From an archaeon (lineage in GTDB: Archaea; Iainarchaeota; Iainarchaeia; Iainarchaeales; 1-14-0-10-31-34): 40,009 bases of DNA. The position numbers are program-made. The DNA lies in contig JBDRIL010000031.1 of assembly GCA_043815885.1 (NCBI GenBank), forward strand, positions 1-40,009, in the 5' to 3' direction. Shown piece after piece: positions 36,001 to 40,009 of the stretch (its first letter is position 1; every line of letters starts with the position of its first letter).

Positions 36001-39000
36001 AAGCCTTCAATTGTGTTTTCAGAAGAGTCACTTTGAGAAAGTGCGATACCGGTTTTGACAGAAAAATGAAGTTAAAGATTACTGGAAAGCTGATGAATAA
36101 GTTCCCATCCTTAAGCAGAATAGTGTACAGGCATTTTGAGGTAATAAGCTGGGTTTTCACTATCATTTTATTTGTGAGTCTTGCTTTTTCAGTAATGGGA
36201 GTCTACAATTTGGCGGTTTATGGAACCTGTGACCCGGAAAATCCTGAAAACTGTCCAATAGGAGACGCAATGTACTCTCCCTACACCGGAGAAGAGATAT
36301 GCGATTGCGGATTCAATACAGACGAATGCAGGGTAGAGGATTTTAAGGTCTGTGGGATTGATTGCAACTGCCTGGAAGAGAAATGCAAGGAGAATAGTTA
36401 ATTTAGCAAAGTTAATAAGTGAATAGTTAGGTATTTAAAGATTTCATTTGGGTATTATATATAAATCAGGGGTGAGGTATTTGGGTAAAAATGAAGAGAA
36501 TAAAGTGAAGTCAAAAAAGAGTTTTTTTAGCGGAAACCACAGGTTTTTTTCTTTAATAATTGTGCTTGTTGTGGGAATGAGTGTTGGATACATTGGATTT
36601 AACCAATTTAATTCAACTCCTTTTGTTGTATTGCCAACAAATACTCCTGTAGTTAAGGAGAAAGTCAATCCTGACGCTGTTCCTGTTGAATTGTTTGTAA
36701 TGAGCCAGTGCCCTTATGGAGTAATGGCAGAGGACGCATTAATTCCTGTATTAAAGGAATTCGGAAAGGATGTTGATTTCACTCTTTACTTTATTGCCAG
36801 TGAAACAGAAACCGGCTTCAATTCATTGCACGGAGCGCCTGAATTGAATGAGGATTTAAGGCAGATCTGTATTGCAGAAAATTATTCTCAGGAAACCTTT
36901 TTCAATTACCTTGCCTGCGTAAACCCTGATTATAGTAATGTTACTGATATTTGGGAAGGGTGTGCTTCAAGCAATGGAATTGATGTGCAGAAAATAAAGA
37001 ATTGTTCTGAATCAGTGGAAGCTGAAAACATCTTAAAAGAACACATCAGGAAAGGAGACGTATTAGGGGTAACAGGATCTCCTACTTTTTACTTCAATGG
37101 AGAACGCTATTCAGGAAACCGTACGGCAAATGCCTTTACCAGGGCAATATGTGAAAGTGCCCCTGAATCAAAGGTCTGCGGGGAATTGCCTCCTGAAGTG
37201 GAAGTGAATCTGTTTGTAGTAAATGATTTGGAGTGTGAGTTATGCGATGCAAGCAGCATAATCGCTCAGGTTAAGGCAATCTTTCCTAAACTAAAGGTGG
37301 AGGAAATTGATTTTTCCAGTGAAGAAGGACAGATTCATATAAAAAATTTTGGTGTTGAATCAGTTCCATTCTTCTTCTTTGATGAAACAGTCGAAAAGCA
37401 CGAGAATTACGCTACAATTGAGAGATATCTTGTAAAGAAAAACAAGTACTTTGAGTTAAAGGTTTCAGGAATTAAATTCACTGAAAGAGAAGAAGTGGCC
37501 AACCACGTGGACTTGTTTGTAATGAGCCAGTGCCCTTACGGAACAATGGCTGAGGCTGCATTAATAGAGATAACAGAAGCAATTCCTGATTTAACCTACA
37601 GCATTCATTTCATTGCAACTGACACTCCTGAAGGATTTGTTTCACTTCATGGAGAACCTGAAGTTGCAGAAGACACTAGACAGGTATGCGTAATGAAGTA
37701 TAATGAAGACAAATTACTTGATTACCTGGAGTGTGTAAATGAAGACTATGGTAATGCCGGAACAGTGTGGAAGGGATGTGCTACTAATGCAGGAATTGAT
37801 GTGAGCAAAATAGAAGCCTGTAGTACGACAGAAGAGGGAGAGAATTTATTGAAGGAAAACATTATCTTAAGTAATGAAATAGAGGTAAATGCTTCCCCTA
37901 CATTCTTATTGAACAACACAATAACCTTTGGGGGCATTTACGCTGAACAAATAAAGCAGAACATTTGTTCAGTGAATGAATTGGATGGATGTGAGAAGAC
38001 TCTTTCAGGCCCAACCTCAACTCCCTCTACCGGCGGAGACCCTTCCTGTTAAATCTGATTCTTTTCTTTTTTTTATTTTTTCGCCACTGCTTTTTCTAAA
38101 AGCGGCGTTTTTCTATTCTTTTAAAATAAATTAATTATCGGTTTCTTGAATTTGCTGTAAATCAGGAATGCAAGCAAAGTGAAGAAAATTGAAGCAGTAA
38201 TTGTGAATAAAGCCATGAATTCAATTGCAGTGGAAGGAATTGGGGGGCGAATTACTGAATTGGTTATCCCTAGTGATTGGAAAAAATAATCTGCTGCATC
38301 ATTCAGCAGGAACCATAAAAGTGCTAATGGCAGAAAATAATTCCTTAATTTTATTCTTCCGTTAAGCAAAAAGACTTCCAGGAATAATCCAATGTGGCCG
38401 AATAAGAGGACGAAGTAAATAAATGACGTGGCTGGAGAAAAGTAATAGGAAGAGTAATTAAGCAGGACAAATACAGTCCAGAAGCCGTATTTTAGTGCTC
38501 CTGCAGCTGAAATAAAGTAAAGGAGGTTAAAGGACTTATTTAATTTAATCAGGATAAGGGTTAGCGCCATTAATAGTGCATAGAGAGGGCAGTCAATTAC
38601 AAATATCCAGTAGAGTGGCTCTGTTTGGAGGAGCTGTTCTCCGTAAAAAAAGAATAACCCATAAAGAAATCCAATGAGATTGCATATTATAATCAATGCG
38701 AGTAAATTGGTTTTATTTATTAAATTCATCAAAAAATAGTTGATTCATTTATTATTTAATTACTTTCCCTTCACTATTATTACTGTGGGCTAGGTTGGAG
38801 TGTCAGCGGTACTCTGTTGCCTGAAATCCGCTTTATGCAGGAACCGAAGCCTTTGAAGGCGAGTTCATTTCTTGGAAGAGAATCCTTATTCAATCTATGA
38901 ACTTTCGTCCCGAAGATTAGGCTTTAAAGCCAATCCGCCAGGTTCGGAAGAAAGCAACGGTAACTCTATTGCTTAATGCTTTTGGGATTCACGGAAGGAA

Positions 39001-40009
39001 GAAAGAGTAAGGGCAATTCTTTTTCAGGAATTGAATTCCACTTTAAGGCGCGCCCACACTTTTTTTATTGTATGCCGAAGGTATGCAATGTTTTTTTGAT
39101 AAAACTCCCAATTTGAGTGGAACTCAAATGGGCTCCTTTGAATCCTTGGATTCAAATAGGGTTTTCTAAAAGTTTTTTACTCAAAATAATTTTATTTTAC
39201 TGGTTCAAACCTGCTCCAGAAATGCCTTAATACTGGAGATTCAAAACTGAATTTCAGTCCTTTGATTGAATCCTTTCTTTCCTTTATTTTCTTCATTGCC
39301 TCTATAATGTAATCCATATGTTCTTTCAGGTAAACCCTTCTGGGAATGGTTAAACGCATTAAATCAAGTTTTGGAATTACGTTTTCTCCTGTTTTTGGGT
39401 CTCTTCCTGCCATTACTGTTCCGATTTCGACTCCTCTTATTCCTGCTTCGAGGTATAATTCTGCTGAAAGTGAAAAAGAGGGAAATTGTTCTTGGGGAAT
39501 TTGATGAAGAAACTTTTTTCCATCAATGAATACTGCATGGCCTCCTACTGGTTTCATTATAGGGATCCCTGCTTTGGCTAAAGATTCTCCTAAATATCTT
39601 ACTTGGGCAATTCTTGCTCTGAGGTAATCCTCTTCAATTCCTTCTCTCAAGCCTACTGCAATTGCCTCCATTTCCCTTCCGCTCATTCCTCCATAGGTTG
39701 GATAGCCTTCAAACAATATGGCGAAAGGAACGCATTTATCGAATAATTCTTTTTCCCTGAATGCAAGAAATCCTCCCATGTTCACTATTGCTGCTTTCTT
39801 TGCACTCATTGTACATCCGTCAACAAAGGAAAACATTTCCTTCACTATTTCCTGAATGCTTTTCTTTTCATATCCTTTCTCTCTTTGCTTTATGAAGAAT
39901 GCATTTTCTGAAAACCTTGCTGCATCAAAGAAAAGCTTTATCCCGTATTTATCGCATAATTCCCTTACTCCCTTTATGTTCTGCATTGATGCAGGCTGGC
40001 CGCCTCCTG

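Follow-up and report, generated by a model that had tools for sequence, protein, structure and literature searches.

The protein SRP19 attaches to the SRP (7S) RNA at the tips of helices 6 and 8. The canonical archaeal SRP consists of the 7S RNA, SRP19 and SRP54, with solved examples from Methanocaldococcus jannaschii, Sulfolobus solfataricus and Pyrococcus furiosus, as outlined in a 2010 review (PMC2905702). According to this review, every archaeal subgroup has SRP19 genes, which occur together with helix 6. Archaeal SRP54 can bind the SRP RNA without SRP19 (PMC2905702, PMC6098224). SRP19 is even dispensable in Haloferax volcanii according to Yurist, Dahan and Eichler (2007, J Bacteriol 189:276), a result taken here as it is quoted in two later papers (PMC6098224, PMC2905702).

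Another non-canonical form is known from Thermoproteus, where the SRP RNA gene is permuted, the RNA is circularised and SRP19 is kept, and where a GNAR motif "connecting helix 6" was used to find the RNA, as Plagens et al. describe (2015, PMC4731332). Our literature search, which covered published reports other than the supplements of DPANN comparative-genomics studies, found none of archaea without SRP19 or helix 6.

Here, we analysed a window, the whole stretch of 40,009 nt, that carries the genes of an SRP RNA, SRP54 and FtsY in a small-genome (DPANN-type) archaeon (Table 1). We consider it highly probable that this archaeon has an expressed archaeal SRP RNA without helix 6, that SRP19 is not encoded, that the particle consists of the RNA and SRP54, and that this is an old trait, most likely reached by joint loss. 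The helix-6-less RNA together with the undetected SRP19 is a real variant of a known system. The RNA family, helix 1, the Alu domain, helix 5 and helix 8 are those of the canonical archaeal SRP, and so are the archaeal SRP54 and FtsY, whereas helix 6 is missing, SRP19 is undetected and the three-way junction has given way to an uninterrupted helix.

Table 1. Features of the SRP system in the window (positions count from its first letter).
Feature	Position	Strand	Basis
FtsY gene, 404 aa, SRP receptor	8852..10066	+	SRP54_N and SRP54 GTPase domain, acidic N-terminal region
SRP54 gene, 446 aa, the RNA's protein partner	10122..11462	+	SRP54_N, SRP54 GTPase and SRP_SPB (M domain) over cut-off
TATA-box-like element TTTATTATTTAA, likely own promoter	38748..38759	+	24-35 nt upstream of the RNA start, from sequence
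SRP (7S) RNA gene, archaeal type without helix 6, 277 nt	38783..39059	+	RF01857 match
Helix 1, 5' strand	38784..38790	+	pairs with 39052-39058; columns 2-8 with 310-316
Small (Alu) domain, helices 2, 3 and 4 with conserved loops	38793..38845	+	columns 11-63; model 10-64
Helix 5, 5' strand	38849..38918	+	columns 72-147 with 227-307; covariation
Helix 6 branch site, two adjoining bases with zero junction nucleotides	38918..38919	+	cmscan gap, alignment
Helix 8, SRP54-binding hairpin with conserved internal loops	38919..38974	+	columns 169-226
Helix 5, 3' strand	38975..39049	+	partner of 38849-38918; covariation
Seven-T run, likely archaeal terminator	39060..39066	+	directly 3' of the RNA end

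The RNA matches the archaeal model RF01857 (Archaea_SRP) by cmscan with 135.5 bits (E 1.6e-32; gathering score 96.5). The match spans model positions 1-317 and is not truncated; the RNA is an archaeal SRP RNA of full length. An earlier survey had described this span with a single gap of 40 positions, and our search reproduces both. The gene is the only SRP RNA copy in this genome, and no ORF of at least 50 aa overlaps it.

The bacterial model RF01854 (Bacteria_large_SRP) fits as well, on 38785-39057 and over model positions 1-256, with 79.7 bits against a cut-off of 60. Such a fit would be expected if a bacterial-type large SRP RNA had been gained by horizontal transfer, rather than an archaeal RNA trimmed, but we find this origin very improbable. 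RF01857 is kept after clan competition by 56 bits (135.5 vs 79.7), the RNA has the terminal helix of the archaeal model, which joins the 5' and 3' ends and shows covariation, and the helix-6-less RNA is spread vertically over 29 families of the phylum. The protein partner also argues against transfer, since the SRP54 is nearest to proteins of Pyrococcus, Methanocaldococcus and Sulfolobus, ahead of any bacterial Ffh. Its best solved relative is Pyrococcus furiosus 3dm5_A (422 bits, residues 3-418), the top six solved relatives are all archaeal and the first bacterial Ffh chains reach about 250-270 bits.

The likeness to the bacterial large (Bacillus-type) SRP RNA is nevertheless extensive, comprising the Alu domain, a long helix 5 that ends in helix 8 and the lack of helix 6 and SRP19. 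The differences are the archaeal terminal helix, the higher RF01857 score and the partner, which is SRP54 and not Ffh. The Bacillus SRP also has the protein HBsu on its Alu domain.

The structure of the RNA was drawn from covariation among 31 related SRP RNAs. Single-sequence minimum-energy folds matched the conserved structure poorly and were set aside. Paired cells make up 93.3% of the real alignment, 73.9% of shuffled ones and 40-53% of those with slid partners. Compensatory changes occur in 60 of 73 pairs, and 0 of 500 shuffles match any of the measures.

Helix by helix, the terminal helix 1 has compensatory changes in 7/7 pairs. The Alu domain has 16 pairs, 12 of them changed on both sides, and 97-100% of its cells are paired. 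Helix 8 has 15 pairs, of which 14 are changed on both sides, and carries a GGAA tetraloop at 38946-38949 (+). This loop and the CAGG/AGCA internal-loop motifs are present in all 31 sequences. Comparison of helix 8 between this phylum, a second phylum and the controls brought out no obvious compensating change; a bulge in the 3' strand is variable in all three.

What is missing is a single block. The cmscan alignment to RF01857 has one local deletion, 40 model positions against 0 bases, just 5' of the helix-8 hairpin. In a canonical control, a Thermoplasmatota MAG whose RNA scores 252.8 bits (L193), the same 40 positions form an 18-bp stem closed by GGAG. Since the control places the hairpin adjoining helix 8 at exactly these positions, the gap is helix 6, and the assignment made in the survey's finding is borne out.

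The alignment agrees with this absence, as the helix-6 columns 148-168 are vacant in 29 of 31 sequences. The column pairs 147/227 and 169/226 adjoin on both strands, and helix 5 runs into helix 8 uninterrupted. Helix 5 is thus stacked straight on helix 8, which makes the large domain a single unbranched hairpin. The 277-nt RNA has no helix 6 hairpin with the GNAR tetraloop that is the SRP19 site. Among 138 RNAs of the phylum, two carry a UUCG-capped stub of 14-21 nt at the helix-6 site, and this cap is not GNAR either.

The short form is also found outside the genome assembly. A contig assembled from one metatranscriptome (X1, 283 nt, depth 196) matches 38785-39051, or 267 nt, without a single difference and leaves the gene flanks uncovered, which are covered in a DNA run; being an assembled contig of one RNA library, where DNA can occur, it does not prove transcript ends. 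X1 shows that it is the short form that is present at the RNA level. It is colinear with the gene. Here lies the difference from the Thermoproteus RNA, likewise a non-canonical archaeal form easily overlooked by standard annotation. The oddity there is permutation, whereas here the arm is simply absent.

SRP19 was searched with several profiles. Within this genome (91.74% complete, 62 contigs), PF01922 has no match at E<=10. A custom SRP19 HMM, built from 12 control SRP19s and run against 11,254 six-frame ORFs of the same genome, gave a best E of 0.063. This match is an ORF on contig 59, which we take from its motif to be HicA-like, and it was rejected as SRP19. Over the phylum sample of 151 genomes, neither PF01922 nor the second SRP19 model, NCBIfam NF001973, has a single match over cut-off. 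The absence of an SRP19 gene, as the survey had it, is therefore upheld by two models. Profile searches may overlook a very divergent SRP19, hence these counts are to be read as "not detectable".

Weaker matches in the phylum sample number 13 for PF01922, the best of 20 bits with two in-frame stops, and 14 for NF001973, the best of 19.8 bits. Two recurrent groups among the weak matches are, judged by sequence motifs, presumably an EF-Tu/CysN-like GTPase and a Trm5/Met10-like methyltransferase. The weak NF001973 matches that were opened were of these two kinds and were rejected as SRP19.

As a positive control, PF01922 detects SRP19 in 73 of 81 genomes of a Thermoplasmatota-type phylum (8 missed) and, in the phylum to which a Sulfolobales MAG belongs, in 59 of 61 (2 missed). 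It misses Sulfolobus acidocaldarius, a named control, and the survey had raised the worry that the SRP19 model may be blind. This worry is largely answered by NF001973, which finds SRP19 in 4/4 archaeal control genomes including Sulfolobus and yet in 0/151 genomes of the phylum.

The presence of SRP54 and FtsY, also part of the survey's finding, is confirmed by their Pfam domains. The two genes adjoin each other on the same contig as the SRP RNA gene, and the SRP54 protein is complete and of archaeal type. A search for the SRP54 M domain succeeds in 146 of the 151 genomes.

A divergent or non-homologous substitute of SRP19 might bind the RNA elsewhere and keep the particle three-component. The incomplete sensitivity of PF01922, the fast evolution of DPANN proteins and the many small ORFs without an assigned family in these genomes leave some room for it. 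However, with the helix 6 binding site gone, the reason for such a protein is removed. Two models in 151 genomes and the custom HMM in this genome yield nothing, SRP54 has no fused extra domain (446 aa vs 443 aa in the Pyrococcus protein), and no small ORF adjoins the SRP RNA gene or the SRP54 and FtsY genes. We thus judge a substitute improbable and suggest, from these sequence data, a two-component particle that would work without one.

The 151 genomes, nearly all metagenome bins, enlarge the sets of 31 and 25 genomes used in the survey. RF01857 matches in 139 of them and exceeds the cut-off in 133. The SRP RNA is 265-282 nt long in 134 of the 138 rows that cover model positions 1-317. The four exceptions have 296 nt (G098), 290 nt (G132), 249 nt (G148) and 225 nt (G067), the last of which sits beside a contig end. 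In the control, by comparison, all 73 full-model rows have 290-332 nt. The survey had both traits hold throughout the phylum. For SRP19 (0/151) and for the short RNA (134/138) this stands, but "throughout" has its exceptions, including the two stubs.

These counts also bear on whether the double absence is an artefact of an alignment gap, of misassembly or of an SRP19 gene lying in the unassembled parts of incomplete bins. The state of this genome, 91.7% complete and in 62 contigs, is all that lends the idea some ground. Independent assemblies agree on the short length in 134 of 138 cases, and the sample includes three single-contig genomes (G001, G006 and G014). The RNA-library contig comes from a separate data set and is identical over its 267 nt. 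Moreover, the same bins that yield SRP54 in 146/151 cases yield SRP19 in none. The chance of an artefact is accordingly close to negligible.

The same double absence occurs in a second DPANN phylum, represented by MAGs labelled "Nanoarchaeota". SRP19 is detected in 0 of its 121 genomes, and 91 of 94 full-model SRP RNAs have 263-278 nt. The RNA falls below the RF01857 cut-off in 12 of 101 genomes. A further "Nanoarchaeota" MAG, G152, belongs to the same phylum as the first, so the count of 0/41 for SRP19 around it is redundant with 0/121. The survey's scope of one phylum holds as far as it goes, yet the trait is not special to that phylum.

The comparison thus covers two DPANN phyla; Micrarchaeota, Aenigmatarchaeota, Altiarchaeota, Undinarchaeota and Nanohaloarchaeota lie outside the sample. 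Starting points for other phyla were taken from a contig scan for the helix-8 motif, which returned mostly bacterial SRP RNAs and four usable archaeal records.

A hairpin of about 35 nt is kept at the helix-6 site in three genomes of the second phylum. SRP19 is undetected in all five genomes with a hairpin at this site, namely these three and the two with stubs. By these profile searches, a hairpin at the helix-6 site is not strictly tied to SRP19.

Mechanistically, the particle is most likely RNA plus SRP54 and would work like the bacterial Ffh-RNA particle. The host has a genuine SRP RNA, which keeps all other archaeal elements, namely the terminal helix 1, helices 2-4 of the Alu domain, a long helix 5, and a helix 8 that carries the GGAA loop and the internal loops for SRP54. 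The M domain of SRP54 would bind helix 8 unaided, and its NG domain would pair with FtsY; the reach across the ribosome would still come from the Alu domain and helix 5. From the conserved motifs and the presence in an RNA library, we infer the binding of SRP54 to helix 8 and the targeting of nascent chains. The Haloferax volcanii deletion, as cited in the later papers, provides the functional premise for the natural state, being an archaeal SRP without SRP19. It is a laboratory deletion that keeps helix 6, whereas here both protein and arm are absent in nature across phyla.

As to history, at least two DPANN phyla, this one included, share the same state, which points to an old, inherited feature. 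Since the second phylum shares the double absence, the event, be it loss or absence, probably predates the phylum. The direction of change is most likely loss, and we infer that the RNA arm and its dedicated protein would have been lost jointly during genome reduction.

In the opposite history, DPANN would never have had helix 6 and SRP19, both of which would have appeared afterwards on the line leading to the remaining archaea and to eukaryotes. The particle would work identically and only the history would differ. In favour of this, neither feature exists in bacteria, the bacterial large model RF01854 matches the RNA end to end, two entire DPANN phyla are without both, and some phylogenies, as outlined in PMC13473441, let DPANN branch off at or close to the base of the archaea. 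On the other hand, the few lineages with a hairpin exactly at the helix-6 position are easier to read as bearing a remnant. The RNA and SRP54 are otherwise archaeal and not bacterial in type, and reductive evolution is well known for DPANN. Ancestral absence is hence unlikely in our view, and joint loss is preferred.

A wider extension is possible but somewhat doubtful, namely that most or all DPANN archaea (kingdom Nanobdellati) share an SRP lacking both helix 6 and SRP19, a state that would have become fixed a single time in the ancestor of them all. In its boldest form this would be the primitive archaeal state, before SRP19 and helix 6 arose towards other archaea and eukaryotes. If the DPANN-wide extension is true, the trait combines an RNA and a protein in one rare, discrete character whose state can be read from any genome bin. 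Such a character could serve to test disputed DPANN membership, such as that of Nanohaloarchaeota or Altiarchaeota.

The findings contradict the three-part archaeal SRP of the reviews, as entire phyla, a large share of archaeal diversity, lack helix 6 and detectable SRP19. In this phylum and at least one neighbouring small-genome phylum, the three-part particle appears to be a bacterial-style two-part one. They thereby offer a natural experiment on the long-discussed question whether archaea need SRP19. The joint disappearance of a piece of RNA and the protein dedicated to binding it, if loss is the right direction, would make a textbook-style case of co-evolution.

Practically, a minimal archaeal SRP of Alu domain, helix 5, helix 8 and SRP54 becomes available for structural and biochemical work. 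The RNA arm and its protein also provide a clean presence/absence character for DPANN phylogeny. Annotation is affected too, as the RNAs of the second phylum often lie near or below the Rfam threshold and can also pass the bacterial model.

The flanks of the gene carry two candidate signals. The element TTTATTATTTAA is likely the SRP RNA's own promoter, judged from its sequence and distance. By eye, nearly all of 28 related loci have an A/T box, resembling TTTAAAAA or TTTATATA, at equal distance; because the genome is AT-rich, this is weak evidence for a promoter. The seven-T run directly behind the RNA is likely an archaeal terminator, and a T run of at least four lies within 12 nt downstream in 12 of the 28 related loci.

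The SRP RNA matches the archaeal model (cmscan, RF01857) at 135.5 bits, over the gathering score of 96.5, with E 1.6e-32, and spans model positions 1–317 without truncation. Its single local deletion, 40 model positions against 0 bases, falls just 5′ of the helix-8 hairpin. This is the only copy in the genome and is overlapped by no ORF of at least 50 aa. It is flanked upstream by a gene for a divergent membrane protein and downstream by one at the end of the contig.

As a control, we aligned a canonical SRP RNA from a Thermoplasmatota MAG (L193, 252.8 bits); its counterpart of the 40 deleted positions is an 18-bp stem with a GGAG cap that immediately precedes helix 8. 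Judged from this alignment, the absent block is helix 6, as the survey's finding had assigned it by place; helix 6 is described as the SRP19 site (PMC2905702).

With the window RNA and 30 others of the same phylum (31 sequences), RNAalifold predicts 73 pairs, 60 of them with compensatory changes. Paired cells amount to 93.3%, versus 73.9% in shuffles and 40–53% with the partners slid, and 0 of 500 shuffles reach any of five pairing measures. All the expected elements, namely helix 1, the Alu domain, helix 5 and helix 8, are supported.

Helix 5 closes with a pair that directly abuts the opening pair of helix 8 on both strands, and 29 of the 31 sequences have no base in the 21 intervening alignment columns; therefore, the large domain is one unbranched hairpin. 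Accordingly, the bacterial large SRP model (RF01854) fits end to end with 79.7 bits (cut-off 60), 56 bits under the archaeal model. On comparison, helix 8 has no obvious compensating change.

Features of the SRP genes and RNAs (window coordinates unless a locus handle is given)
Feature	Location	Strand	Basis or remark
FtsY	8852-10066	+	directly upstream of SRP54
SRP54, 446 aa	10122-11462	+	N, G and M domains
TATA-like box	24-35 nt upstream of SRP RNA	+	sequence
SRP RNA	38783-39059	+	cmscan, Rfam RF01857 (Archaea_SRP)
Helix 1	38784-38790 paired with 39052-39058	+	31-sequence alignment
Alu domain	38793-38845	+	31-sequence alignment
Helix 8	38919-38974, GGAA loop 38946-38949	+	31-sequence alignment
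Run of seven T	after SRP RNA gene	+	sequence
Long GC-richer RNA (genome G196)	L188:101-409		'Nanoarchaeota' phylum
Long GC-richer RNA (genome G169)	L189:101-420		'Nanoarchaeota' phylum
Long GC-richer RNA (genome G241)	L190:101-414		'Nanoarchaeota' phylum

Of the sampled words of the SRP RNA, 96% occur in a groundwater metatranscriptome run (X1). One 283-nt contig of this run (depth 196) matches 38785-39051 with full identity and no gap, though a contig assembled from an RNA library is not proof of transcription or of transcript ends. The RNA run covers neither flank and a DNA run covers the upstream one. The 16 letters before the match resemble the end of an Illumina adapter with GGG after it, a weak hint that the RNA 5′ end lies within 2 nt of the model start. 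Contig and gene are colinear; an arm is thus not regained through splicing or permutation, in contrast to the permuted Thermoproteus SRP RNA (PMC4731332).

SRP19 is likewise not found. The window's genome (1.16 Mb, 62 contigs, 91.74% complete) has no PF01922 match even at E ≤ 10. A custom HMM from 12 SRP19 proteins of the control genomes, run with all filters off on 11,254 six-frame ORFs, gave at best E 0.063 with only the C-terminal half of the model aligned. This rejected candidate, an 87-codon ORF (C59:1615-1875, + strand), surfaced solely as the best chance match and carries what we assume to be a HicA-like toxin motif.

Among 151 genomes of the phylum, including three single-contig ones (G001, G006 and G014), none has PF01922 over the cut-off; weak matches (E ≤ 1) occur in 13, the best of 20 bits with two in-frame stops. 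The survey's finding carried the worry that PF01922 misses Sulfolobus. This is largely removed by NF001973 (NCBIfam), which matches all four archaeal control genomes, Sulfolobus acidocaldarius included, and is still over the cut-off in 0 of the 151. Its weak matches (E ≤ 0.1) occur in 14 genomes, the best of 19.8 bits, and the two recurrent groups inspected are not SRP19 but presumably a GTPase and a methyltransferase.

The SRP54 M domain (PF02978) is found in 146 of the same 151 genomes, and PF01922 in 73/81 and 59/61 genomes of the phyla of a Thermoplasmatota MAG and of a Sulfolobales MAG, so neither incompleteness nor blindness of the model to divergent archaeal SRP19 can explain the result. 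Among the eight of 81 control genomes that lack a match, Thermoplasmatota MAG G153 has a canonical 305-nt SRP RNA (C54:5649-5953, 173.8 bits); either its bin is incomplete or its SRP19 is divergent.

SRP54 and FtsY are both present, as first surveyed, in adjacent genes. SRP54 is closest to that of Pyrococcus furiosus (3dm5_A, 422 bits, residues 3–418). The gene row on the + strand (7526-12004) reads eIF6, prefoldin subunit, FtsY, SRP54 and DUF84 NTPase; it looks conserved. The SRP RNA gene is on this contig too, at a distance of 27 kb.

RF01857 matches in 139 of the 151 genomes, over the cut-off in 133. Of the full-model rows (1–317), 134 of 138 are 265–282 nt, whereas all 73 in the control phylum are 290–332 nt (72 at least 304 nt). 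The exceptions are from G148 (249 nt), G067 (225 nt, at a contig end), G098 (296 nt) and G132 (290 nt). The claim that the trait holds throughout the phylum stands for the non-detection of SRP19 and for the short length of most RNAs, but the RNAs of G098 and G132 keep a stub.

The stub, a small hairpin exactly where helix 6 would sit, puts 21 and 14 nt, respectively, into otherwise empty columns. Its cap is UUCG, not the GNAR loop recognised by SRP19, and no SRP19 is detected in either genome. The two RNAs (L003:1501-1796 and L004:1501-1790) come from different orders, and the stub is either a helix 6 remnant or an independent small insertion. Separately, family f29 has shorter or weaker SRP RNAs (G148:C72:12282-12530, 249 nt, 107.6 bits; G143:C2:14732-15000, 269 nt, 89.3 bits) and SRP54 M-domain matches at model positions 21–90 or 23–90 only, which suggests further reduction of SRP in this lineage.

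The trait is broader than first proposed. In the phylum of a 'Nanoarchaeota archaeon' MAG, PF01922 is found in 0 of 121 genomes and 91 of 94 full-model SRP RNAs are 263–278 nt, so the pair of absences is common to at least two phyla of DPANN, the small-genome archaea. It probably predates the window's phylum, which NCBI taxonomy places, as Candidatus Iainarchaeota, in kingdom Nanobdellati. In the other three RNAs (309–320 nt) the helix-6 site carries a GNAR-less hairpin of some 35 nt, and the helix-8 tip is unusual, not GGAA; no SRP19 is detected in their genomes.

The RNA anatomy, its conservation and the non-detection of SRP19 are direct observations. Of the proposed coordinated loss to RNA and SRP54, the missing helix 6 (the 40-position gap) and the non-detection of SRP19 (0/151 genomes) are confirmed, while we only infer the two-component particle, and loss is the probable direction of change. 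In function the particle would resemble the bacterial Ffh-RNA particle, and helix 8 would need no helper to fold or to bind the SRP54 M domain. Such a particle is plausible because archaeal SRP54 is reported to bind SRP RNA without SRP19 in vitro and Haloferax volcanii to be viable without SRP19 (PMC2905702, PMC6098224). Compaction of the canonical large domain is credited to helix 6, not SRP19 (PMC2905702), which makes the loss of helix 6 the greater change in structure.

The same 2010 review describes SRP19 genes as identified in all archaeal subgroups, coexisting with helix 6 (PMC2905702). Where a nanohaloarchaea paper names secretion genes (FtsY, Ffh and SRP RNA among them), SRP19 is neither listed nor commented on. 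In the main texts of open-access papers and preprints we found no report of archaea, DPANN included, without SRP19 or helix 6. The SRP without both is a real and well-controlled finding, and is a variant of a known system, not a new kind.

Around the gene, a similar TATA-like box stands at the same distance in nearly all of 28 related loci, and a T-run lies downstream in 12 of them. The 3′ end is directly followed by a repeat of some 120 bp (39060-39180), with about 13 further near-full copies, 88–95% identical, on many contigs of the genome. Its first 46 nt form a hairpin between T-runs, with about 14 short copies on many contigs, and a DNA run reaches a depth of 139 here from several variant contigs. 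The repeat is perhaps a miniature mobile element, or else a terminator module in repeated use.
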